A stretch of 64,000 bases of DNA from Obrimoposthia wandeli (lineage: Eukaryota): positions 62,001 to 126,000 of the forward strand of contig CDROCS010000582.1 in NCBI GenBank assembly GCA_977020255.1, read 5' to 3'. The notes beneath the pieces are model-generated. The model did not search any database. It was not told where the DNA came from and saw only the letters and a list, made by a program, of their open reading frames with translations. Every line of letters begins with the position of its first letter. Position 1 is the stretch's first letter. Below are positions 3,361-62,228 of the stretch, one piece after another. A program made the position numbers and the translations under genes.

Positions 3361-4538
3361 AATTAAAGTTGACTTCAAAATCTATAAAGTTAAAGTCACC
3401 CTCATTCTTTAGAGTCAAGACTATAGCGATCCACCAACTCTGACCTTAAAATCGATACGTGGTTCATCCCCACTGGTGTAGAGACTTTCAGAAGTCTTAG
3501 GAATTTTACTACAGCTTTTTAGAAAATACGTACGTAAACGTATTGTTTCGTTTTAGTCTAGTGTGTTAACAATAAACGATTTCCTACATTAGAAAGCATT
3601 GTTCTAAACCCTTCAGATTAAGAGACATCAAAAAACAACACCTTCAGATAGGCATTGAGATAGGCAACCATAACATTAAGTAGGCCACAACCATCCCTAA
3701 GACCTGCTTCTATAGAACTCACGTTGGGGCCCTCCACCGTCAGAGGATCTATAAGTTTCATATAGAAACCCCAACATAAAGACTATACACTAGTTGACAT
3801 AGGTAGTGCTCAAAGTGATAAGGGACAGAGATTTTCGTGAGAAAATTTTGAATCTCAATAATTTTTCTCTAATTTAAAAACAACATAAAATAAAAAATAA
3901 AACTTCAAATAGATAAATTTTTTTCCAGAAATTTTTGAGAACGTGTTTTTGATTTTACTAAGAGAATTTGATTTTGAGTTTGACCAAATAACTTTTACGA
4001 ATATCACCGAAATCTTTTTAATTCCTGTACGCATTTCGCCTTTTTCATTTGTCACAATTTTTAAAAATATATAAAATAAAGTAATAACACAAACCCAAAA
4101 AACTATCACAAAATAAATAAACAAAAACGTAGCGCTAGTCTTCACTGGAGACGCATTCAAACTAGATTGGTAATAACTAACGCAAGCGAAACACCATCAT
4201 AAAGACCTAAGTCACAAATAAACTTCAGACATTCAACGAATTCTTCCCAGAACTTCCTTAAACACATAAATCAATTAAATAAATCAAACAACTCAGAAAA
4301 TCAAAACCTAACATCAAATTCGGATATAGAAAGTTTATCCTTACCACAAACATCTGACTCAGACAACTCATCAGAAACTTCAGAAACAGTGGCAGAACCA
4401 GTACCACATAACCTAGAATTAAATAACGAACAAATAAACGAAGTACCCCAAAAGGCAAACCATAGACTAAACATACTACTAGACGCATTTAATGGTGATA
4501 AATCGTCTTTGCCAGAATTCTTGATTCTTTTGCTCAAG

Positions 4539-6246
4539 TGTTAAGATTATGATTTACAAAATTAATTAATTATTTATATAGGAAAATAGAACCTTGAAAG
4601 CAAGGCTAAATAAAAAAAAATGAAAAAACAATTTTTTTAATTAAAATAAAGTTGGATTAGAATAAATTTAGGACCTTGATAGGTCATGTTTGTTGTGCAA
4701 GTATATAAGAGAGTTAAAATTATTAAATTACAAGAAAGTTAAAAATCAAATTAAGAAAATCCAAGAAAACGACTTACGCTGAATTATGCTGAGAATCTGA
4801 CAGCTGTAAATTGTCTGGATAAGACAACCCTGAAAAAAGAAAGCACTTAGAACAAAGAAAAAACACTTTAGATAAGTGAAGAAAAGCACTTTAGCTAAGT
4901 CTGGAGAAAAACTACTTAAAGGAAATTCCAGAGTCAAATTCACACAAGAATCACGCGTACAAATTAAGGAGAAGTGAGTGTACGAATTGAGAAGCTAAAA
5001 TCGAAAGTTGAAGACAGAAGATCCGAAACAAAGGGTGCGAGACAAAATACAAGCCATGTCAACTGCAATTAAAACCAGAATCTCGCAGGAAGCACCGTCA
5101 ACCGAGAGGATCAACAGAGCACGAGGATCTCAACGGAACCAGCAGCCGAACTCCGTGAACCGCCGGACTACTCGTGTAATCTCGAAGAGGCTTCTCGAAA
5201 AGAGATCACGGTAAGTTTCAGAGTGTGAGCGTGTTGTTGGGAGGTAGTAACATAGAAATCGATTGAATAGAAAACCATTTTGAAAGTATCTATTAGAATA
5301 CAAAACCATTCTGAAAATATCTATTTGAATGCAAAACCATTCTGAAAATATCTATTTGAATACAAGACCATTTTGAAATATATGTTTGAATATAAAACCA
5401 TGTTGAAAATATATATTTGAATATAAAAAGCATTTTGAAAAATAACGATTTGAATATAAAAGCATTTTGAAAGTATCTATTTGAATATAAAAACCATTGT
5501 GAAAATATATGTATGAATAAAAAACCAGTGTGAAAATAAAAGACTAAATCGATTTGAATATAAAACCATTTTAAACGTTATTTTGAATATAAAGTTGTTA
5601 CGTAAACGTTATTTTAGAAATACGAACTTTTTTGTAAAGGCTATTTTGGATATAAAAGTAGTTTTCGATAAACCTTGTAAAGAAAAAAGATAATAATTAT
5701 TGACATAGTAGTGACGTAAAAATAAAGTTATCATATCCACTAAAGGTAAATCATTCGATTCGGATTTGATGAGTTAAAGTTAAAATAGGAAACTAGTAAC
5801 TAGACAGAACATAAAATCCGTTCTCTAACCTACTAGACAGAAAATTAAAATCGATACGTTAAGTTAAGGACATCCTCATTTAGTGTGTGAATTTGAATAG
5901 TGTCTTAGGATTAGTTGTCTGAAATTTTAGAAAACATATTTAGTGTGAAATAAAGAATAAATATTTCCTACAAACAAGTAGCGTTACCTTGAATAAACCC
6001 ACCTAGGATTAGAGCGATACCAATCCTCTATACACCACACTACAATAAGGGAACCCTTTTCAGTACCTTGTGCATACAACTCTGTACACACCTCGCACTA
6101 CATTAACACAAAAAACCTTCAGATTTGAGACTAAACCGAGTAGGATAAAATCTAAATAGGCCAAATACATATGTAAGCCCTATTGCTACAGAACTCACGT
6201 TGGGGGCCTCCATACAATGATCTAGTTTAAAATAGAAACCCCAACA
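4539..6246 (+). mobile_element. Long solo LTR copy 2 (1708 bp), TGTTAAG...CCCCAACA, 4-bp TSD CAAG
   Basis: CAAG at 4535-4538 and 6247-6250; same conserved framework motifs as copy 1. Confidence 0.88.
5260..5600. repeat. ~30-bp tandem array inside solo LTR 2
   Basis: TGAATATAAAACCATTTTGAAAATATCTATT-like unit, about 10 copies. Confidence 0.88.
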
Positions 6247-6814
6247 CAAGCATTCGAATGGACAGACCCAGAAAAACTTAGAGTTTTTCCAGCATACCTA
6301 AAAGGCACTGCCCTAACCATGTATAGAGGACTAACAAATCAGCAAAAAGACACAGGGGAACATTTAGTCTAACATTTTCAAAATATGGTTTTAGGAGCAC
6401 AGTTGGACCAGAACTACCTAAATCAATTTACATAACGAGAACAACTAGGAGAACCCACAAATATATTCGCAGTCGAATTACGACGACTTGCTCTAAAATC
6501 TTTACCCGAAATAGAAGAAGCTGAAAGATAACGAGTACTTTTACATCAGTTTTTACATGGATTAAATAACAAAATTAGAGATTACCCAGCATAATTAGAA
6601 GTAGAAAACCTTCAACAAGCTATAGAAAAAGCTCAGCTAGTAGAAGCAAGACTAAATATGTTACAACAAACCGAGGTTTCAGCATTATATTTTGAAAAAA
6701 TACAACAACCACAAACTTCACCAAACTACAAATTACATCGTAAATTGAATTTGTTATAAATTAAAGTTATCAAAGTAACGATATTTGTGAGTGGGGAAAG
6801 AAGTTTTTTAAAAG

Positions 6815-7749: not shown

Positions 7750-8500
7750 AAAGAAAAGTGAATGATAATATTATTTATTAGATAGAAAATTTGCACACAT
7801 ATTCATACATGTTAAACAAGCACATTGATGTCCATGAAATTGATAGACACTTGATATTTTTAAGGAAAATTCCCATCCACTAAAATCACATTGAATATTG
7901 ATACCCGTAAATGATGGACAAACTCATTAGTATATACATCTTTTAATTTATGAGTTAATGTTTACCTATTTTAGTTAAAAATATGGCTAATTTACCTTTT
8001 GACAAATGAGGAATTTCCGAATAGCCAAATAAAATCAAAAATAAGTAATTCTTTATAACTATACCACATCAGAAGAGGTATTGAATAGTTTGTTACCTCC
8101 AGTTATTGATTTAGACACATGTATGTTTGATGAATTGAACTGGGCATTTCTAGGCGATTATATGTTCGCATACCTAAAATTAGATGCTTATTTGCCTACT
8201 GATGTTTTGAAATAAAAAAATGAAATAGTTAAAGATGGTTCAGATACTGTGCATTTCCTTTCAGGCTAGTGCTTTAAAATCATTAAAGTATAAAAACGTT
8301 ATTGAAAGATCCTTAAAATATAGAGGTTTCTTGAAACTGATATGAGTGGTGGTATAACTTTTGGAAAAAGCACCATATAGAATCCTCAGTTGATGTAGAA
8401 TTGTTGTATATAGATGTAATTAACTAGTATGGATAGACTGTCAACCATTACATCATGCTGATTTTAAGTGGATTGATGACGTTGAATCATATTATGGCTA
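7750..8500 (+). pseudogene. polB: Highly decayed Polinton polB remnant
   Basis: Fragments YMFAYLKLDAYLPTDV, GGITF, ELLYIDV.N*YG and QPLHHADFKWIDDV match YMLYYMKLDIYLLADVF, IRGGMTF, EILYIDINNLYG and QPLPHANFKWVYDV of element D. Confidence 0.8.
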
Positions 8501-19477: not shown

Positions 19478-21415
19478 AATTAATTAAAAACGAAATAAAA
19501 TAAAACGGTTTGTTTGTTGCGTAATTATACAATTTTATTGAATAATTATGCAACCAATTACTTAAAGTAATTAAGTAACTACAAAACATGAATTCACTAC
19601 AAATCTTAATGTTTTTTAATTTATTAAATTCTTGGTTTGTTAAACCAGCTTCTCCATCACCACTTTGATACCAATATATTTTATTAAATTAATTTTTAAA
19701 TTAATTTTTAAATATTTTGGATTTTAATAATCTACAAACAAATAAAGTTTTTCTTGAACCACTTGGACCTACTACTTGAAAAGTTGAATTGTTAGTTAAT
19801 AACATTATATATTAACATTAATATAAAATAAATATATAAGAATAAGTACATGTTTATAATAATAACAACATATTATTAAATATTTATTAAACATCAAAAT
19901 ATTCGGTTGCCGTATGAATCCTCCAGATGAGAGTTGTTTCATTCTTCTTATTTATTTTATAACCGAGAATTTTTATTTCAATCATCCAACTTCTTCCATT
20001 TTCTTGAATATCTGAAATCTTTGTTCCGGAACAATCATAAAATTTGCATTTATCACCGCGCATAAATATACACTCGTTCTTCGTCAATCTTCAAATATTT
20101 GATGACATCATTGAGTTGTTGGATGTCTTTGTTGTCAAAATCAGAGACTCGGTAATTGTACTAATTTTTCGATAATGTCACTGTCATATTCATTGGATGA
20201 TTTCATGCAGATGTCAGGAAGAACATATCGCACTCGTAATACTTTTGAAGTGCTTTATAAAACATTTTAAATTGAATGTTTTTATTAGAAATTGATTCCT
20301 ATTTATATAATTTAATTTAATTTATGGCATGATGTCATTAACTTGATTGTGAAAATTTCAATTTCCAAGACCTAAGATTACGACCTTTTCAGATGTGAAA
20401 ATATTCACACACAATGGATTGAAAATATTTAATCTTAAGCCTGGGAAAACTTTAGGGTCAAATGCGCATTTATTACGTAACATATTCTATAATCTGAATA
20501 GATTTATACTTTGACCTAAATCTTCACATACCGTAATTGATTGAATACTAGGTATATTTATTCTTAAAGGGTAAGAAATATTTTTAATAGGAACCTTACA
20601 TCCCATAATCCTACATTTCTTATTTCTAAAAATAAGTTTTGTATAATCTATAATAGGGTAAATTATTACATATGTCCTCAATGTTTAAGTACGGAAAATG
20701 TTGAAATGCATTTGACAGAATATAAAAATGGTGGTAAGAAAACATTATTTAAAGTACCAGTTTTAAGCAAAAGAACTGATATAATTAATGAACCATCAAG
20801 CATAGTAATTCCAGCTCCTACTCCGTCACGAAAACGTAAAATAAATGACAATATACAGACTAAAACATCGTTAGAAAATAGTTATTCAACGATATCCATG
20901 AAAGTTGATCATCTCAATCTTGTAAGTCTTAAGGTTCCAGATGCATTGTTAAACGAACTAGAAAGAATAGTACAGTTAATGGGAAATGCAACGATTCAAT
21001 ACATCATCAGGATGAGGTTTGAAAAGAATGATGGAGAAACTAACGAATGGTATGCTTCGCATCGAGCAATGATTTTTTCACATGCTATAATTTCGGAAAT
21101 GGAAGATACAATGGAATATAAAGTTGAAGAATATTCATTAAAAGGTAGTGGTGGAAAATTGGTGAAAATACATTAATACGCATTTATTGCTACTAAATAT
21201 AGCCAAATTTGTGCATTGTCAGGCCATTCATACATTAAATCAACAAATTTTCTTACCAAATCTAAAGCATCCATAAATATTCCAAACTCTGATAATCTTT
21301 GCTTTATTTATGCAATATTATCAATACTTAAATATAATGAAATAGAATCATGAAGAAATAAACCGAGTAACTACGAAATATTTTAAAATGATTTTGTATA
21401 TTATACCAAAGACAT

Positions 21416-22260
21416 CTTATATGTTTCCGGATCAAATTTTTGTAGGAACTTGTTGTATTTGAGATTAGTTTTTTTCGTAGTTTATGAATTGTTATATAAT
21501 CAAATCGTATAAAAAAAAAATTATAAATCCAATAATTTTTATTTTTCTCTGACGACATCGGCTTAAATATAACTGTGCAAGTGCACACATAAAAAATCGC
21601 ATGCATATTTTTTGTGCAAAGTGCACATAAACACACAAAGATAGCAAAGCACAATGAGGGAGATTTTGGCAGAGAGTTATTCAGGGTATAGCGACTAACT
21701 GAGCTGTCAAATCAAAGGTTAGGGAAAAATATTCAAATTGGAAGAGGAAAAATTCACATTTTACATTGTCGCAAACAGAGGGAGAAATGGTGATAAGGAA
21801 TGGGAAGATGAAGTTCAGAAGCAGCAGAGTGACAACAGAGGGAGAGTTTCGGATATAACTAAAGCCATCAGAAAACCCGACCCGAGCGACATCAGCAGAG
21901 ATTAGCAGCTGACCAATACCGTCACTGCAGTCCAGGCCACCAGCGGCTCAGCTGACAGGAAGTGCGCGTCCGTGTAGACGGATTGTGAAGTTGCCCATCC
22001 AAGAGACAAGACCGGCAGGGAAATGACACTACTGTCCTGGCTGGAGAAGAGAACTGGGAGGAGGAAACTCCTCGATAAAATCACATCACAGACAAAGTCG
22101 CTTCCCTGACGAGCCCGGTAGGGCGAAGTGGGGTTTATACTCCGTCGGAGGCTGATTAAGAAATACCTCCCTGATTGTGGGCATTTTAGTTGTTTATTAA
22201 ATGTAAATTTAAATGAATTGACTAAATTTAATTTCTTAATTTGGAAACTCTAAACCCAAC
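21416..22260. mobile_element. 845-bp GC-richer insertion in polB of B carrying a hammerhead ribozyme (Penelope pLTR / retrozyme-like or LTR-like)
   Basis: AGACAT direct repeat at 21410-21415 and 22261-22266. Excision restores DFVYYTKDMPI (cf. ELQYHGIDFPV in D). The right end AAACCCAACA resembles the long-LTR family end. Confidence 0.6.
22100..22152 (+). ncRNA. Type I hammerhead ribozyme (core variant at positions 15.1/15.2)
   Basis: Stem I GCUUCC(22100-05)/GGAGGC(22147-52); CUGACGA (22106-12); stem II GCCC-GGUA-GGGC; GAA (22125-27); stem III GUGGGGU-UUAU-ACUCCGU; GUC cleavage triplet at 22144-46. The canonical GAAAC reads GAAGU. Confidence 0.85.
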
Positions 22261-25119
22261 AGACATGCCTATCCTGGTATAATAATAAATGTATTCATAT
22301 TCAATGAGGTAAGTGAAAAAGAATCAAAAACTGATGTTATTAAGAATCCTTATATCGATGTTGCATACAAATCAAAAATTAAGGAAGGAACTATAGTTAA
22401 TTTATTGTTACTAGAATCCAAGAAACGGTTTCATTTTATAGAAATAAGATGTGTAAAACGACTATTAAATATTCGAACTGAAACATCTAGAATTAGCAGA
22501 AAATGGTGTAAACAGTGTTTACATGGTTTCAAAAGTGATTTGTCATTATAAAAACTCAAAGTTTCATGTGACTATAATCAAGAAAGCACTACAATGTATA
22601 CTATGCCTAAGAATAAGTACGTTAAATTTAACGATTGGTCAAAGACTATATCACCGAAATATGTCGTTTACTCTGATTTTGAATCTGTATTAGTACCAGA
22701 TGAGAGTTATCATCAAAAGCATATGCCTGTCACATCTGGTATGTTATTTATGAGAACAGATGAAATTTAAACCCAGTATCAACATAATGTTGGTGATGAC
22801 TGTATAGTTAAATTTTTTTCAGTTGAACTTGGATAAAAGAAAAGGTATAGTCATGGTATTTAAATGCGCTTAAACACGTAATGATTCCCTTAACAAATAC
22901 AGAGATTCATGCATTTAGCAATGATAACGAATGTTATTTATGTCACGATCCATCGGAAAAATATGTTAAAGATCATGATCACTTTACTGGCAAGTATCTA
23001 GGTCCTGCATACAATGAATGTATTTTATCAAGAAAACTTCGTCTAACTTTACCTTTTGTGTTTATCTCAGAGGTTATGATTTACATCATATGAATAAATT
23101 TACTGATTGGGATATAAATATTATACTTCAATCGACATAAAAACTTTAAGCAATGATTGTAAGATTAGGTCAAATAACTCTGATATTTATATATTCTTTG
23201 CATTTTTTTACAATATTTTACAAACATCTTTGGAGAATTTTGCCAGTAAATTACCAAGTATTCCATTAACAAGATCAGTTTTTCCATCTAAACTCATTGA
23301 TGGCAAAGGAATATTCTCATATGATTTTGCTACTTCATTGAATGTTCTCCAGAATAAGTTAAGTTTACAAGTAAAATGGATGAAAAAATCACAGACACTG
23401 AATATCAAAAAGCACAAGATGTTTGGAGAATAACAAATTGTAGAAATATGATGGACTATATGTTAGTTTACTTAAAAACTGACGCACATTTATTAGCTGA
23501 CGTTTTTTAAACCTTCAGAAGAAAAACTCTCAGCGAAGATGGTTTAGACCACTTAGCCTTTTTTAGCATTCCTAGGTTGAGCTGGACAAGTGCTCTAAAA
23601 CTGTTAAAATATAAGGTTGAATATTCAGGATCCTGAAATGTACAACATGATTTCTTCTGGTATACGTGGAGGAATGACATTTGTCAATAACTATCATGTA
23701 GTCGCTGATGAAGAAAAGATTCTTTTATATTTATATGTCAATACTTTATATGGATGGGCTCTTGATCAACCTTTACCAAAAGCAGATTTTAAATGGATTC
23801 TTGATGATATAAAGCTAAACGAAATGTTGCATGAAATGAAAAATGTGGACATGGAACATATTGAATATGGTTATGTTATGGAGGTAGACTTGGAAATATC
23901 TGAAAACCTTCATGACTTTTTAAACGATCTAACTATAGCTCCAGAAAAGAAATTTCCACCTAGTAATAAAGTTGAAAAACATTTTTAATGACACATTCAC
24001 CAAAAAGTCATTACGTATTCACGAGACTATTGCAGATGTATGTTAGTTTAGGATCAGTGATATTAATTATTCATCGAGCAGTAAAGTTCTCTCAGGCAAA
24101 GATATTCGCAGAATATATAGAATATAATTCAGAAATGAGGTCTCAAGCAACGAATAAATGTGATAAATATTTTTATAAACTTAAAATTGTTAGTTTTTAT
24201 GGAAAAACCGTTAAAAATGTTAAGAAACGGTTGAATCTTTGCATCTGCACTAGTTCTACAAAATTAATGACATATACTAGCAAACCTATATTTCGACGAA
24301 CATTGAAATTCATGATAATTTAATAACTGTTTTATTAAGAATATACTTTATTTGTCTCGATCGACCAAACTATATAGGCCAAGCTGTACTAGACCTTAGC
24401 AAATTACGAATGTATACTCTTCAGTATTAGGATTTACAAAATTACAGATCACTATTTAATTGTTCAATTAAAGTAGTTGCCAAAGATACTGATTCATTCT
24501 TTTTAGATTGTAAAGGTTTTAATTTAAGAAATTAGTTGTTACCTCAAATGATTGCAGATGGAGCATTATATACGTCAAATTATAATGTGAATGATCCATT
24601 ATATCCTAATGAATTTAATAGTAAAATAGGATTATTTAAAGATGAATCGGAAGGAAGAACGTATAAAGAATGGATTTTCTTACTTTTTAAATATTATTCA
24701 TTTAAGTTTGAAGATGACTTTGAAAATAATAAAGCAAAAGAAGTAAATCTTAAGGGATCAACGGTTGTACAAAAAACATATTTGGACGTGTATGAAAACG
24801 ATAATGCATATACTATACCACAAAAGAAGTTTGGAACAATAAATTATCAACTATACACAATCATAACACAAAAGACAGCTCTCAGCTCATCAGACAACAA
24901 ACACTATTGAATCGAGAAATATATAAACCGCGCTTATGGACATTATGAAATTAAATAATAAATTTGTTTAATTTTGTATTATTCTCTAACTTATTTCTTA
25001 TTTAATTTTTTTCTATGTATTTATTATGTAAATTGTATATAAATATATTTATTAATAATATTTTATTTTTATAGATAATATAAATTATTTAAAGAAATTT
25101 TACCCTAATCCTTTAGATG

Positions 25120-29105: not shown

Positions 29106-31724
29106 CTAAATGGGTAATTTCAACAATTTGATTATTTATAGCATATGATTTTCAAAATGCCTTACACATATCGCACTGAGAATCTGATTCCAGGTAGCAA
29201 ATCTGGGCAGAGGGGAAATTAAAATATTTATGCATGTACATACATAGGTAGTAAAACAAAAGGGAGTGAGCATGTAAAGTACAGTGAGTTAGAGATTTAG
29301 CATAGAATGAGTAAGGGAGTAGTGAGAATGAAAGATAGAAAAGAGTGTATGTTTGTCAGAATATGTGTGTGTGTGTGGTGAATTGTGCACTTGTGCACAT
29401 TAACACCATATGTCGACGATAGTCGTCGGCACATGAAAAAGGAAAATCTTCCCTTCTTATCTCTGACTTCGCGGGCAATTTTTATTGTTAACATTTGTAG
29501 AACAGTATTGTCGCTGGTTGATCTTAAGTTATATTTGTGACTTTTTACTTTTGTATTCTCCTCAGGTATTTCTCGACATCTGTTTAAATGTGTTTTTATT
29601 TCTTTTGATTTTGGTTCATTATCAAGTTTAGCTGTTATGTGGGTTCCGTATCGAAGCCCCAACAACCCCACCTACCGAGGATCCATGGAACTTTTTTATC
29701 CAAAGGAATAGAGAGGAACTCTTGAAACAACTTGAGGACAAAGATATACGGTCTTTACATGAGAATAAACCATATCCAAATCCACAATCTCAAGAAGACC
29801 GAAGTGACGCCATCAATATCCTCACGGAAAAAGCACCTCACAATGCTTTCAGTGTCATTAAGGTTGGATGGACCAGGACAGAAAATCTCTCATCAGATTT
29901 CATGACAATCGCATGCGTCAACCAAGAAAAAAAAATATATTTTTAGGTCAAATTACGGGTTATGTCCACTTTGGAAAGGAATATCTCCGTAAGGTTTCTG
30001 TTATATGAAATGAAAATAGTTTTATTAGAATTGGCTAGTATGAGACAAGTGTTTCTGAGCATAATATGTTTTAAATGTGTTTATTTATAAAGATATTTGA
30101 AATCTATAGAATGAAAATTTAGAAAATATATCTTATTTTAGGTAAAATTAAGAGTAATGTCCATTTTGGAAGGGGTTTCTCCTTAAGGTTTCTGTTATAT
30201 GAAATGCAAATAGTTTTATTAGAATTGGCTAGTATGATACGAGTGTTTCTGAGCATTATATGTTTAAATGTGTTTATTTGTAAAGATATTTTAAGATATA
30301 TATATTAAGTTTTGTATTTAATCATGTGATTATATTTTTAATGAAAATTTGGACACTGAAAACTCGAGTCCTGAACAAAAGAGCTTCACTTCATATTAAA
30401 ACAAGTGTTTAATATTTACTCAATATAATAGTTTAATTATATTATTACTATTTTTTGAACCTTGATCCAATAAAAAATCACAAAAATTTTACTGTTCACA
30501 AGTTAATGATATTGAAATTATATGGAAAATATCACTCAAATAGACTTATTGCATCGATTTATCATTAAAACTCTTGAATTGAATAATTCATAGTAGATAA
30601 TTTTGTAACAAATGAAATGACGTAATAAAAGCTTTATTGTGTTTAAGGTTTAGGAAATACAGTAACGATTTAACGTCCGAGACAATAATTTCAAAACTAT
30701 TGAAAATATTACCAGCAAACAAATGCTGAATTTGAACGAACATGGAAGATGTATAATTATCATTGTAATGTTGAGTCAATAAAATTAATATAGAGCTTGA
30801 CAACTTAAAAAGTTACAATTTTAGTGTCAGACATAACATTTTGTGTTGTTCTAACTCTTATCTTAAATAATTCTGGTACTATAATTAGATAAGTCAATTA
30901 TGAATAAGTTTTACTTTATAAAATGCCGCCGATATTTCCATAAATTATAAAAATATACAGAATCACGCTTTTAAAAACACACTATAATTTTTAAATGTAT
31001 TTTAAATTGTTCCAATAAGAACAAACGATGATGAAGTTTTTAAAAAAACAAAATAATCTTGGAAACTATGCAAACTCAGATTTATAAAAGTATTATATGT
31101 ATAACATTGTATACATTGTATATATAGGCATAGTTTGAAAAATTGGGGGAGAGGGATTGACAATGTGGTGGAACAACTGATAAAAAATATTAATACAAAC
31201 TTTTAATATTCTTATAAAACCCTTATTAGTATATAGTTGTTTAAAAAATTATTTTTTTATAAGTCTTATTTACTTAAGCTTCTTCGATATTTATCCGAAT
31301 TAATAAAACTTAATTGAACAGTAATCTTATCATGAACATCATAGATTAATTTCCTTTTTGCAGATAAAGCAAGTAAGGAAGTCATATTTACGAATCAAAT
31401 GGTAATAATTATAGGGAGTATCCTTAATGACTACCGGAAGATTGATTAAATTTTCGTTTTCCTTTAATTAAAAAGGAAGATGTATATCAGACTTTTGATG
31501 ACTTTACTATTCAATCGATACCAAAAATCCGTCTACATCAGTTGTTTTAATCACATCAGCTTAAGTTACCTATAAGAAAACATTTGACATACTACTTCGT
31601 ACATAAATAGTTCTTGTAATCAAAAATAAAACAACTATTTGTGACACGTTTACAAAAGTAATTATTTTTCAATGTGACTCAACTGTATTAATATTAAAAA
31701 ATCGATAATATATTAAAAATAAAA

Positions 31725-34540: not shown

Positions 34541-34584
34541 GGAAACATAAATTAACAAGGTGTTTAGATTATTTGTGATATTTT

Positions 34585-35512
34585 AGATGATTTTCCAGTA
34601 GCACCTATTCATCAATGTCCACCTAATTCAAAGGTTAAGAAATTATTGTTAACACATGAAGACAAGTTGAATTATGTGGTGCATTGGCGGCTTCTTCAAT
34701 TCTACTTAAAGTTGGGAGCGAAAGTCACTCGAATTCATCGGGGTTTTAGTCAAAACTATGTGTTTAAAGATTATATTCAGAAGAATTCTAGAAAACGTAA
34801 TTTGGCTACTAGCAAATTCGATCGGGATTTTTACAAGTTAACAAGTAATAGTATCTTTTGAAAAACTGTAGGGTACTTGTGGAAACGTATTTGTATACGG
34901 TTTTGCAATGATGAGCGTAAACTAATAACATATACTAGGTCAAATATAGGTCAAACGGTTTTAGACATTTCTAAACTCAGAATGTACGAGCTTCAATACA
35001 TAGAATTAGAGAAATATCGACAAGAATTCAATTGTGAGATCAAAATCGAAGCTGGGGACACTGACTCTTTCTTTTTAGAATGTAGGAATGTTAGTTTAAA
35101 TAATCAATTATTACCAGGAAAGTTTAGGGACAACTTATTAGATACCTATAAATATCCAGTTAACCATATGGGTTTAAAGGATATTATCGGGAAATTTAAG
35201 GATAAAAGTGAGGGACAGGTTTCGTATGATAATTTTATTTTCCTACGCCCTAAATGGTAAAGTTTACATGCATCTAATAATATATGTTCAATGAGAGCAA
35301 AGGGTGTGGGAAGAAACAATATTATACATGAGGCCTACCGGAAAGTTTATGATACTGGGTGTATTGAAAGCGTTGAGCAAACTAGATTTATTTCAAGAGC
35401 TCATCAACTGTATTCCCATATGTCAACAAAAATCGCTTTGAGCAGTAATGATGACAACCGCTTTTGGGTAGAAAAGAACGTTAGCCTGGCTTATGGACAC
35501 TTCCAAATTTAA
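34585..35512 (+). pseudogene. polB: Polinton C polB 3' fragment (close relative of D)
   Basis: Near-identical by eye to ~61190-62228 (KLLLTHEDKLNYVVHWRLLQF, GDTDSFF, RAKGVGRNN), with deletions and frameshifts. Confidence 0.95.
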
Positions 35513-53918: not shown

Positions 53919-56900
53919 TGTTGTATAGTGATAATAATAATAATAATAGTAATAATAGTTATAGTAGTAATAATATAACAATAACAAAAATAATAATAAT
54001 AATAATAGTAATAATAGTTATAGTAGTAATAATATAACAATAACAAAAATAGTAGTAATCATAATAATAATATATTAATTAGATAATTAGTCTAATTAAC
54101 ATAATTGATATTGATCGAATCGGAAAGCTACTTTGTCGCAACAATTGATATTATGTTACTGTTTGAATTTAAATGGATTGCCAAGTGGACCTTACTTAGT
54201 GATAGTGGATGATTTGGGGCTGTACAATTTTATTGGAATAAAGTCCCATATTTACTATTTGATATTGCGCCGAGCAGTAATAACTGACTAATTACCCTCA
54301 TTGAGTTACAATAACTGGGACGAGTTACCGAGGATATCAGAAGCGAGGACCCAATTGTATTATTATTATTATTATTATCGCTGTTATTATAATATTGTTA
54401 TCATAAAATTGTTACATTATTATTACTAGTGCCATGAGTTTAAGTGCCATAAATATCTATTAGTTTCAGCGCTTTTAAGGCTGCGCCTAAGGTTAAAATT
54501 TTATTTAAATTAGACAAAGTACCTTTAATTTCTCTATTACTGTTAGATTAATATTTATTATTTTCAGCACTTCAAAGGCTGCGACTAAGGTTTTAAACGT
54601 ATAATTATACGTAGTACCTTGCGTTCATAAAGGTTAATATTCATAAACCTCGCAAGAATTGCTTCCATTCCTCTAGAGGAGATCGCTAGATATCAAACTC
54701 GAAAATCAATAGAAGGATAATTCCAGTCAACAACAGCCGACACGCTGCCGCAAGCCGGTAACAATAACATCCTTGCCATAACAGAAACTGCACAACAGCC
54801 CACTGAAGAAGATAATGCAGCCATTTTTTACAATGACTCCGGTGGCTGGCAAGAACTCAGAAGACAGAAGGAAAGGTACAAGCAGCCAAATCAACCAAGC
54901 AATTTTTTTTTTCAAATTTTCAGATGCTAACAGATTATGAAGATGTCGATTTTGATGGCCGAATGCACACTATGGCAAGGGTTCGGTACAGATCAGTCAC
55001 ATCACCCTCTACCTACCATCTACAGATTCCTTATGAAATGTCTGAAATAATAATCCAGTAGTATATGTATCAAGAAATTTACTTGATGTGGAAATCCGAT
55101 ATTCTCAGATTGAGAAGGAATGCCTAGCTGCGTTATTCGGAGTGGAACAATTAAAGATGTATCTAATAGTGAGGAAATTTACTTTATCGACTGATAATAT
55201 GCCACTCATATCTTGATTTACGAAGCCAATCGACAAGTCGAATACTAGAATACAAAGATGGCTTTTACGTGTGCAAGAGTATACATGCGATATGCGACAC
55301 ATACCAGGTAGATTAAATGACATTGCAGATAATTTATCACGACTTCCAGTATCATTAAATGAAAGATCGTTGAAAGAAGATGATGCAAGTATGATATTTT
55401 TAGTTATGAACCATAGTTTAGTAGCTATTGATGATATTAAAATAGCAAATACAGAATATGACTTGTTTAAAGAACTAAAAGTAACATGTACTACACTAGA
55501 TAAGAGTAAATATAAAGCTATAAGGAGTAATTTAACATTCGAAAACAATTTAATTGAATTTGATGATCGACTTTGCATACCAGTGTCACTAAGAAAACGA
55601 GTATTGGAGACAGGACATAGTGGTCATCTGGGAATTATAAAGACGACTGAAGTGATTAAGAGTGTTATTGTTGGTAGCCCATGATGGGTGAAGAGATTAA
55701 AGATTGGGTAAATCGTTGCAATGTATGTCAGCATTTTGCTATGGACCAGCCAGCACCACTTAAAGTAAATGAACCAATGTTACATGAAGTGTCGGATACA
55801 ATATTCTTAGATTTTCTCGGTCCTTCAGAGCGTTTAAAATTAGTATAATTTCTAAGTATAATTGATTGGTACTCAAGGTTTCCTTTTCTGTTTAAAGTCA
55901 GGAATTCAAATGCAAAGAGTATTATTCATAGTTTGAATCAGTTATTTGCATTATGTGGTATGCCAAAACGAATAGTAACAGACAATGGCTCATCATTTAG
56001 AAGTGAAGAATTAGCAGAGTACCTGAAAAAGTTAGGCATTAAACATACATTCTCTAGTGTGTACTCTCCACAATCAAATGGAATAATTGAGAGATTTCAT
56101 GGTACTATCAAATCAAGAATGGATAAACTATTGTTTGACGGATATGTGTAGATGATGTTGTCCAACAAGCTCTTTTTGATATCAGATCGACCACTGCGGC
56201 TAAGACAGGCAAAACGGAGTTTTGTTTATTTTATGGGTGAGAGATGAGCAACAATTTTCATAAATTTAATGAACACAACCATATTAATGCTAAAGTCAGA
56301 AATTACGAGACGGAATATATGAAAAAGAGAAGCACATGTAAAGATTATATATCAGGTGAAAAAGTAGTGGTGACATTCAAGAAGCAACATAAATCATTAC
56401 ATGGTGTAAGTATGAAGATAATTAGAAATTACTCTTGGTTGATATTATTATATGATAGTAATAGAGAGATTGTGGTTAATCAGCATTTAATTCATAAATT
56501 AAATAGTTAAACTTAATTTACTGTTCTTGTTTATCAGCTGAATAATAAAAGTAAGCATTATAATTGGTATATATTGATGATACGTGGAATAATGAAAGTA
56601 CACATATTAACACTTAATAATCAATAGTAATGTGATTTAAATTCAATAAACTACACAATTAAAATAAAGTTGTCGGGAGATGTTGTATGGTGATAATAAT
56701 AATAATAGTAATAATAGTGATAGTAGTAATAATAGTAATAATAGTGATAGTAGTAATAATAGTAACAATAATAGTAGTAATCATAATAATAATATGTTAA
56801 TTAGATAATTAGTCTGTTTAACATAATTGATATTGATCGAATCTGAAAGCTACTTAGTAGCAACAATTGATATTATGTTACTGTTTGAATTTAAATGGAT

Positions 56901-58854: not shown

Positions 58855-61800
58855 TTGTCACCGACAAACGGAAGAAAGAGGCGAGGCCAATTTCTTAATA
58901 AGGTCCCACCCAAAAAACGTAGAGAAAACGGTGCTACTATAGAGTATCACCTAAATAATAAATATGTTATAGTTAAGGTGTCATTAGGAAATGAAATTTT
59001 ATTAAACGTAGGTGTAGATTCAAATATTGAAAATCTTTTAAAATCAGAAGTGACTAAATTAGGACAGGCTAAGGTTCAATTTTGCGCAACAGTGCAGTTT
59101 AAAAATGTCAATGAGGAAACTAAAACTTGGGTAATTTCCCATAAAGCAACTGTTTTTTTATGATAATTTTGTAACTGAAATTGGAAGAAACCTGGATGAA
59201 AAAATTGCTAATTATAGCGAGTTAAGTAGTGGATGGACTCTAGTTAGAATTCACGATGTTAGCTTTGTTCTAACAAAGTTCAGACATGATATATCTTTCG
59301 GGGAGTTCATACATTCCTTCACCTAGATCTCTTCAACTTTCACGTTCCATTGTTAACGTACAAAACAGTGATAACCTTTGCTTTCTGTATAGCGTGTTGG
59401 CCATCCTCAAAAGGGATGTAATTACTGAGCATAGAGAGCGTGTCAGTAAATATACCCTTTTTTTAAATGAATTGCAGTATCATGGAATAGATTTTCCTGT
59501 TAAATTAACTACGATATCAAGATTTGAACATCTTAATAACTTGAGTATTAATGTATTCAAATATAATACTGATATCCCAGTTAATGTAACAGATGAAGAA
59601 ATTTTTAAAAATCCTTTTGTAGATGTAATTTATAGGAGCAAAAATGAGGGGACTCAGGTCAACTTAATTTTGCTCGAACATAATAAAAATTCCATTATGC
59701 TGCAATTCCCAATTTAGATCGTCTTATAAATTTAGATAATGGAGCCTTACCGGTTAGGATAAGATGTAAGTGGTGTCATAGATGTTTGCATGGGTTCCGA
59801 TCCGAGCTCTCTTACAGCAAACATCTAACATTATGTTCACTGAATCCTGATGACAATACGTTATACACCATGCCTAAGGATAAGGATTTAAAATTCAGGG
59901 ATTGGGCAAAATGCATACCCGTGGAATTCAGGGTGTATGCAGATTTTGAGTCAATTTTAGCATTGCACAACCAGTATGAGAGTATTCACCTACCGGCTTC
60001 GGCAGGACTACTATTCTTAGGCCCCAATATTACCCAGTATCATAAATTTTCCGGTCCAAATTGTATTTTAAATTTTATGTTTAAATTAGAGGAATTAGGA
60101 ACAACAATCGTCAAACTGTGGTATGATCTCAATGCTCATCAAGCAATGATCATGACAGGCATAGACTGGGTTAATTTTATTTTCTTGTAGATTATGTTAT
60201 TTGTGTGGAACCCAGTCTAAGTTAGTCAGAGATCACGATCATGTTACGGGGCGATACTTGGGAGCGGCGAGCAACCTTTGTAACCTTGGCCGTCGTCTCC
60301 CTAAAAAACCACGCATTCCCATCGTGTTTCATAACCTCAAAGGATATGATTTGCATCATATACTTAAATACGCGTTGGGTACATTAAGCTCTTGGGAAAT
60401 TTCATGTATACCTCAAACTTCAGAGAAATATTTATCTTTAACTGCATATACTGAATTCTGCAGTTTAAGATTCATAGATTCTCTGCAGTTTTTGAGTGGT
60501 TCTTTAAAAAATTTAACGGCATCTTTAAATGCATGGCCAATTACACAGTCAGTGTTCCCAGCTTCGGTTAACGATAAGGGGATTTTTCCGTATAAATTTG
60601 CGAAAACATTTGCAGTTTTAGAAAATACAACTGAAATCCCACCCATAACTGAATTTGAGGGTGTAAGTCTTCAAGACTATAATGAGGCCCGTACATTTTG
60701 GGTGAATAATTGTCGAAATCTTCTCGAATATATGCTTTATTATATGAAGTTAGACATTTATCTTTTAGCTGATGTTTTTGAGTCCTTTCGTGTAAAGTCT
60801 TTAGCAGAAGATGGGCTAGATCCCATGCATTTCTTTAGTTTACCTGGTCTTTCATGGGCAACAGCAATAAAAACTCTTAAAATTAATATCGAGTTACTGC
60901 AAGATCCCGCGATGTATCAAATGTATGATTATGGTATACGCGGTGGAATGACTTTTGTCAACAAACATCATGTTGTAAAAAATCAATCCACGGAGATTCT
61001 GTACATCGATATTAATAATTTGTATGGGTGGGCGCTTACTCAACCTCTACCTCATGCCAACTTTAAGTGGGTTTATGATGTGGATCAATTGAATAAGTTG
61101 ATGACAGATTTGGCTACTGTTGATACAGTTTCATCCGACGTCGGCTATTTGGTTGAGGTGGACATAAAAATCCCTCCAAATGTGCATGATAAATTAGATG
61201 ATCTTCCAGTAGCGCCTGTTCATCAATGCCCACCTAATTCAAAGGTTAAGAAATTATTGTTAACCCATGAAGACAAGTTGAATTATGTTGTGCATTGGCG
61301 GCTTCTTCAATTCTACTTAAAGTTGGGAGCGAAAGTTACTCGAATTCATCGTGATATAAGCTTCAGTCAAAACTTTGTGTTTAAAGACTATATTGAGAAG
61401 AATTCAAGAAAACGTAATTTGGCCACTAGCAAATTCGATCGAGATTTTTACAAGTTAAAAAGTAATAGTCTCTTTGGAAAAACTGTAGAGGACTTGCGGA
61501 AACGTATTTGTCTACGGTTTTGCAATGATGAGCGTAAACTAATAACATATACTAGCAAGTACAACTTCAAGCGTAGTTTTACAATTGCAGATGACTTGGT
61601 AGCAGTGTTATTAGGAAAACAGAGTATTTGTCTCGATCGACCGAGTTATATAGGTCAAACGGTTTTAGACATTTCTAAACTCAGAATGTATGAGCTTCAA
61701 TACATAGAATTGGAGAAATACCGACAAGAATTTAATTGTGAGATCAAAATCGCGGCAGGGGACACTGACTCTTTCTTTTTAGAATGTAGGAATGTTAGTT

Positions 61801-62228
61801 TAAATAATCAATTATTACCAGCAATGTTTAGGGACAACTTACTAGATACCCATAAATATCCCGCTAACCATCCTCTACACTCTATGAGTTTAAGGGACAT
61901 TATCGGGAAATTTAAGGATGAAAGCGAGGGACAGGTTTCGTATGATGATTGTATTTTCCTACGCCCTAAATGCTACAGTTTACATGCATCTAATAATACA
62001 TGTTCAATGAGAGCAAAGGGTGTGGGAAGAAACAATCTTACACATGAGGCCTACCGGAAAGTTTATGATACTGGGTGTATTGAAAGCGTTGAGCAAACTA
62101 GATTTATTTCAAGAGCCCATCAACTGTATTCCCATAAATCAACCAAAATCGCTTTGAGTAGTAATGACGACAAGTGCTTTTGGGTAGAAAAGAACGCTAG
62201 CCTGGCTTATGGACACTTCAGAATTTAA
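58855..62228 (+). CDS. polB: Polinton D pPolB (~1120 aa if four slippage frameshifts are corrected)
   Basis: SSGW, NSDNLCFLYSVL, DHDHVTGRYLG, FHNLKGYD, RFIDS, KGIFPY, DIYLLADVF, IRGG, YIDINNLYG, KLKSNSLFGK, GDTDS, RAKG. Confidence 0.96.

Follow-up and report, generated by a model that had tools for sequence, protein, structure and literature searches.

An antisense type I hammerhead ribozyme motif in the LTRs of an envelope-bearing Ty3/gypsy family of Obrimoposthia wandeli

The window, a stretch of 64,000 nucleotides from Obrimoposthia wandeli (contig CDROCS010000582.1, positions 62,001 to 126,000 of the forward strand), contains a type I hammerhead ribozyme motif at 22100-22152 of its plus strand, antisense to the long terminal repeat (LTR) in which it lies. 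Stem I is open and 6 bp long (22100-22105/22147-22152). It encloses the core CUGANGA (22106-22112), stem-loop II with a 4-bp stem and a tetraloop (22113-22124), the GAA (22125-22127), stem III of 7 bp including three G-U pairs (22128-22145), and the GUC triplet, which places the predicted cut after C22146 of the plus strand. Two short flanks on the same strand hold predicted tertiary-contact residues: 22097-22099 on the 5′ side of stem I, which reads GTC in the window and GCC in 23 of 28 aligned copies, and 22153-22155 on the 3′ side (TGA in 26 of 28 copies, TAA in two), which starts with U1.7, the predicted partner of an adenine in loop II. The CUGANGA and GAA segments, the NUH triplet and three stems with an open stem I are those of a type I hammerhead, and every element is in register, as had been claimed in an earlier note made from the sequence without database searches. 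The motif is the single match of a hammerhead motif scan over both strands of the window, and none was returned from 100 locally dinucleotide-shuffled windows. Two results count against the motif taken alone: the minimum-energy fold of the 53-mer closes the hammerhead core (z = −1.70), and the Rfam check that the note had proposed, applied to the window copy, gave no match at E ≤ 1 between 18000 and 26000. The motif itself is real.

The note had also pointed to two changes at positions 15.1 and 15.2 (22128-22129, plus strand), and these are genuine departures from the canonical core, which is kept there in 25 of the 28 aligned copies. As a result, the canonical 15.1-16.1 pair is missing from the window copy. 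A change at position 15.1 is strongly damaging in hammerhead mutants, and the window ribozyme is therefore likely to be weak or dead as far as its sequence can tell.

The motif lies in an insertion, described before as 845 bp between AGACAT repeats. The insert is in fact a solo LTR of 847 bp (21415-22261, minus strand), running from a TGTTGGG U3 end at 22261 to the U5 end at 21415, and the target-site duplication is the 4-bp GACA (left copy 21411-21414, right copy 22262-22265); AGACAT is too long because its outer letters belong to the element's own ends. The LTR has TG...CA ends with one U5-terminal base drifted. What the earlier note had taken for a right end resembling that of a long-LTR family is indeed of LTR type, but it is the 5′ (U3) start of an LTR on the minus strand. 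The predicted cut is 116 nt from this U3 end. Between the ribozyme and the end lies a U3-terminal segment common to all LTR subtypes (22153-22261, plus strand; 72% mean identity), of which 22165-22170 can form an alternative helix with the 3′ strand of stem I. The same ends and 4-bp duplications were found at 8 of the 30 loci of a first search, most of the others being without one end inside the scanned range, and a complete type I fold was present at 17 of the 30.

The sequence split by the insert is a decayed protein-primed DNA polymerase B (polB) of Polinton type, located at 21201-21413 (plus strand) upstream of the insertion and at 22285-24952 (plus strand), with many stops and frameshifts, downstream of it. 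Residues 2-72 and 91-137 of the window frame at 59277 match 21201-21413 and 22285-22425, respectively, and the PF03175 frame at 60165 continues matching as far as 24952. An insertion into a Polinton polymerase gene, as proposed before, thus holds in so far as a decayed polB is split, whereas the Polinton-type assignment is a putative one made by the polB only. An empty-site version, in which 21406 is joined to 22271, is present in one public-run contig and comes from a paralogous copy. The decayed polB appears as a very abundant repeat of this type. Thousands of variant contigs of the stretches at 20600-21400 and 22280-23100 were seen in public runs, and polB sequence of this type also adjoins 4 of 29 other ribozyme loci. 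Elsewhere in the window, a better-preserved protein-primed polB (59277-62228; PF03175) has a 687-residue frame with a weak endonuclease VII-like match at its N terminus, and further partial polB copies are found at 34577-35500, 8033-8486 and 3-446.

The U5 signature of the window LTR is common to six copies that are 82-90% identical, namely five solo LTRs and one truncated copy (L006) that adjoins a primer binding site (PBS) and a leader stub of about 80 nt. No full-length element with this LTR subtype was found among the six copies, and pattern searches returned no match for a polypurine tract (PPT) or an exact PBS junction of the subtype. The U3 module of the window LTR is 73-78% identical to that of full-length LTRs over 145-230 nt. 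Because of this shared module, and because L006 abuts the PBS and leader, the window subfamily is assigned to the family described below, and the window insert is classified on sequence grounds as a solo LTR of an envelope-bearing Ty3/gypsy family of about 14 kb. It is an old copy with a drifted core. Internal-region fragments of the envelope-bearing family (leader, gag and pol end) were noticed in the window at 3775-4608, 6247-6731 and 29364-29649, interrupted by other repeats, and a relic RNase H-integrase region at 55070-56121 belongs to a different gypsy family (27-31% identity).

Sibling copies with a canonical core and compensatory changes, which the earlier note had suggested looking for, do exist in the genome. 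Sixteen of the 30 first-search loci have the complete fold with a canonical core, and a 25-nt pattern of the intact core recurs without mismatch at 6,045 places in the 1.35-Gb genome, its reversed control at none. Among the first 100 listed matches, 17 same-strand pairs are 12.6-14.2 kb apart and a single opposite-strand pair is spaced at 12-14.2 kb. Thirteen of 15 retrieved pairs (12.6-13.9 kb apart) proved to be elements of the form LTR-PBS...PPT-LTR. These clean elements are about 13.5-15 kb long, have LTRs of 0.7-1.4 kb that are 94-100% identical, and carry matching 4-bp target duplications in 12 of the 13 cases. Two pairs, on contigs C14 (12.9 kb) and C35 (13.7 kb), are not clean two-LTR elements and lie outside the count of 13; a 6.7-kb pair on C46 is no clean element either and was never part of that count. 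A 5′ flank repeated ahead of the second LTR was seen at G000:C14:220900-235899, C46:4700-13600 and C46:28800-37700, which suggests tandem duplications or assembly repeats instead of normal two-LTR insertions. A count of 2,713 for an LTR-PPT junction pattern was set aside, since besides true junctions the pattern hits, by coincidence, a site within the exonuclease frame described next.

The domain order of the elements is gag, a fusion protein (env), protease, reverse transcriptase (RT), RNase H, then integrase, followed by a frame with PF00929. The gag match is weak (PF03732, 20-27 bits). The fusion protein is a Monjiviricetes-type glycoprotein (PF24664, E down to 6e-91) encoded between gag and protease, and this position of env between gag and pol is the one that characterizes GAG-ENV-POL errantiviruses. 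The PF00929 frame is separate, codes for a DEDDh exonuclease of ~380 residues just upstream of the 3′ LTR (for example L033:1893-3032, minus strand), and is detectable in all 13 full-length elements; among solved structures it is most closely related to ISG20, ISG20L2 and SDN1 (E 2e-5 to 9e-5), and the alignment shows catalytic-type residues. Most full-length copies are broken by stops or frameshifts, and the RTs of the unbroken ones are 93-100% identical. The LTRs that occur twice around the PBS, gag-pol and PPT of these elements are of sister subtypes, which share the U3 module with the window LTR. Proteins of the same GAG-ENV-POL layout were found in public assemblies at 52-61% identity, where they are known as protein only, without DNA. 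Among metagenome and viral contigs (820 kb), 101 related loci at 29-53% identity gave no env match and no hammerhead.

All element frames lie on the strand opposite the ribozyme. Read in gene sense, a short purine tract precedes the TGTTGGG that opens the LTR, and a PBS follows its other end. This PBS is the complement of the 3′ terminus of the host tRNA-Trp(CCA), which ARAGORN identified in a tandem array. At three loci (L179, L180 and L181, on G000 C407, C1006 and C1708), one of which sits between two LTRs, a ~35-40 nt 3′ piece of tRNA-Trp with CCA is joined, on the strand of the ribozyme, to the U5 end. These pieces are unremoved primer copied into the genome, and they identify the ribozyme strand as the tRNA-primed minus strand. 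The array itself (L058 and L059, G000:C5734:142500-151200) consists of tandem tRNA-Trp(CCA) genes with a period of ~206 bp, 21 of which were called in the stretches analysed, and is about 7 kb from a truncated element of the family. Another tRNA locus, L056 (G000:C1622:120367-120630), is a tight tRNA-Ser/Pro/Arg cluster of bacterial appearance, possibly a contaminant or a transferred piece.

The predicted cut is 105-185 nt from the U3 end across the element LTRs. The ribozyme is present in all 26 LTRs of the 13 clean elements, which were themselves found by the ribozyme pattern. A sample chosen independently of the ribozyme was taken from the first 20 usable RT matches, two being skipped (one near a contig end, the other the query itself); 14 of the 20 copies reach an LTR within 2.5 kb and six have none there. 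Eleven of these 14 LTRs have a complete antisense ribozyme, two have a single core change, one has lost it, and none has a ribozyme on the sense strand. Poly(A) signals on the sense strand could not be placed. The earlier note's ribozyme-bearing module is thus mobile and has LTR-type ends, but it is a solo LTR of a protein-coding Ty3/gypsy family and not a retrozyme; a retrozyme cycle, in which a self-cut circle carries the PBS, does not apply because the ribozyme is opposite the PBS-primed genomic RNA.

The note had made its reading depend on other genomic copies keeping the fold, and they do so: in the 28 aligned copies, 95.5% of stem cells are paired, compared with 33-54% in slid controls. 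Changes on both sides of a pair occur at five pairs across all three stems and amount to 23 cells. None of 500 shuffles had as many such cells, although 166 of the 500 had at least as many covarying pairs. Covarying cells overcount events because the copies share a tree, and the 23 cells perhaps correspond to five to six independent events. Across 21 LTR types, identity is 81% in the ribozyme, 54% in the adjacent interior and 72% in the segment up to the LTR end. The pair between U1.7 and a loop II adenine is described as the minimal tertiary contact (PMC11875169); U1.7 is found in all 28 copies and 27 of them have A as the last residue of loop II, so that the predicted contact residues of the stem I flanks and loop II are retained. 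The minimum-energy fold is not a hammerhead in three of five intact siblings, and in 22 of 26 copies a segment farther downstream is able to sequester the stem I 3′ strand. Taken together, the pattern of substitution argues that the antisense hammerhead fold is kept under selection in the family. Part of the conservation may reflect recent ancestry or recombination at the U3 end, because the ~110 nt from the ribozyme to the LTR end are also conserved (72%) and the RTs are nearly identical.

A ribozyme on the non-template strand would act only on antisense RNA. Our main reading, to which we give a probability of roughly 0.55, is that the window holds an antisense ribozyme near the U3 end of a solo LTR and that intact copies of the family cut antisense RNA before it reaches the element genes, a function that the position and strand of the ribozyme make likely. 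The antisense RNA would arise from divergent firing of the LTR promoter, or from transcription of a host gene or piRNA cluster that enters the LTR through its U5 side, and the cut would fall 105-185 nt short of the LTR edge. In the 3′ LTR, cleavage would detach this RNA from the antisense of the coding region; the downstream piece, uncapped and with a 5′-OH, is predicted to be degraded, and little antisense RNA would then cover the exonuclease, pol, env and gag. The result would be less double-stranded RNA and fewer precursors of antisense piRNAs. In the 5′ LTR, cleavage would stop read-through that leads outward. Counting against the antisense-cutting role, pairing with genomic RNA would remain open to the U3 part that lies upstream of the cut. 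A more specific proposal, which we put forward tentatively and think somewhat improbable as it stands, is that of a counter-defence in which the antisense hammerheads destroy antisense or piRNA-precursor transcripts together with the element-encoded ISG20/SDN1-like exonuclease. If true, it would have no precedent, either as a ribozyme of an autonomous LTR retroelement or as a ribozyme directed against host RNA silencing.

The position and strand of the ribozyme also fit a different product, for which the cut would define where a capped antisense RNA without a poly(A) tail has its 3′ end. This RNA, several hundred nt long and made from the GC-rich U3, would itself be functional, for example as a regulator of the LTR promoter or of host genes. 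The U3 upstream of the cut is GC-rich on the ribozyme strand in all 10 LTRs profiled, and the sequestration of the stem I 3′ strand would favour product release. The body of such an RNA would be poorly conserved between LTR subtypes (the 54% given above), however, and we consider this reading unlikely. Less probable still is a passenger without current function that entered the U3 end in a single capture, with a Penelope-like element as one conceivable donor, and multiplied in a recent burst of the family. The similarity of the RTs and the conservation of the neighbouring 110 nt would agree with such a history, but compensatory changes in all three stems and the 11 intact ribozymes among the 14 LTRs chosen by RT speak against it, as does the preservation of all core and tertiary residues in LTR types that can otherwise hardly be aligned.

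We give little credence to an antisense RNA that is cut in two LTRs and circularised in the manner of a retrozyme (~13 kb or of tandem-LTR length) to feed retrotransposition. A ribozyme in both LTRs and the one LTR-tRNA piece-LTR junction would suit it, but the antisense RNA is without the PBS for tRNA priming, and the two closely spaced ribozyme pairs that were examined (808 and 620 nt) are LTRs nested in one another that differ in subtype, and not repeats. The least probable reading, that the 847-bp unit is a non-autonomous LTR-type retrozyme, draws on its LTR ends, 4-bp duplication and internal hammerhead and on a window subfamily known only from solo or truncated copies, but faces a single ribozyme per unit, the absence of a non-coding internal region between two LTRs, a ribozyme on the strand opposite the PBS, and coding elements to which this U3 module belongs as well.

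Control of antisense RNA by intact copies, the reading that we prefer, would set the family apart from the ribozymes of retroelements so far, which have been tied to the processing of the elements' own template RNA (R2/LINE 5′ ends, Penelope pLTRs, retrozyme circles). A hammerhead kept by selection on the strand that is not the template, in an autonomous, envelope-bearing LTR element, calls for some other role, and control of antisense RNA would be the simplest. The family also supplies a single animal genome with some 6,000 sites at which RNA might be cut, and it suggests a possible route by which LTR retrozymes arise from autonomous parents. The predictions are a single cut position, a step in antisense or piRNA coverage, and an orientation bias of intronic copies.

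Among known elements, the GAG-ENV-POL errantiviruses that Chary and Hayashi report from Platyhelminthes, Nematoda and Bryozoa (PMC13524379) are close in coding content; they are described as having a Ty3/gypsy pol and, placed between gag and pol, a fusion gene of class III type. In that account Smed_errantivirus_1-4 span 14.5-14.9 kb and the PBS of the Macrostomum element ends in TCACCA, as in the family here, with which these elements are compared by their description; the main text mentions no hammerhead, ribozyme or exonuclease, and the paper gives neither a PBS nor an LTR for the planarian elements. The planarian gypsy element Burro/GYPSM1 is likewise described with an env of mononegavirus-like fusion homology in frame between gag and pol, but it exceeds 30 kb and has BIR, MATH and ankyrin domains, whereas the family here is of 13.5-15 kb and has a separate DEDDh exonuclease (PMC6431247). 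In the same review by Arkhipova and Yushenova, as far as its text was available, hammerheads are tied only to Penelope-like elements and Terminons.

With respect to the ribozyme, animal type I hammerheads are described from tandem non-LTR retrozymes and Penelope-like elements (PMC7229834, PMC4209133, 10.64898/2026.07.22.740005), and these share with our family the type I topology, an animal genome and a high copy number. The non-LTR retrozymes, however, are given as 150-450-bp tandem repeats without LTR, PBS or PPT, and we rejected this candidate, since there are no tandem units here and a PBS, a PPT and a gypsy pol are present. The Penelope hammerheads are in pseudo-LTRs of RT-endonuclease elements, a feature not found here. 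The partner RT that the earlier note had proposed to look for is of gypsy type, and 18 frames of linked elements contained only gypsy, fusion or exonuclease domains or nothing, with no Penelope RT or GIY-YIG, so that a Penelope-like pLTR was rejected too. A DNA transposon (Ginger-like) was rejected on the absence of long inverted ends and the presence of PBS, PPT and gypsy pol. Type III hammerheads with a stem-loop II identical to that of the LTR ribozyme were found in four IMG/VR phage contigs (L074-L077); their loop-1 residues are those that flank the open stem I of the LTR ribozyme, but loop 1 is closed (a type III permutation) and the context is phage. The shared residues may reflect convergence on one tertiary motif rather than descent.

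A similar architecture is that of the plant LTR retrozymes, in which hammerheads lie in the LTRs of non-coding elements (Cervera, Urbina and de la Peña, PMC4918200; PMC7761336). According to the former, these have a hammerhead in each LTR, a PBS, a PPT, a 4-bp duplication and gypsy-type ends, as seen here, but they have type III ribozymes, use tRNA-Met and form a self-cut circle that carries the PBS (PMC4918200). The present family is autonomous, and its internal region codes for gag-env-pol and an exonuclease; its ribozyme is of type I and lies, in all LTRs examined, on the antisense strand, which is not the template of the RT. Our literature search, whose coverage did not extend to subscription papers, returned no hammerhead in any autonomous LTR element, and the accessible text of PMC3088659 makes no mention of LTRs or planarians. 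An autonomous, envelope-bearing Ty3/gypsy family with an antisense hammerhead under selection in each of the two LTRs is a new combination of known parts.
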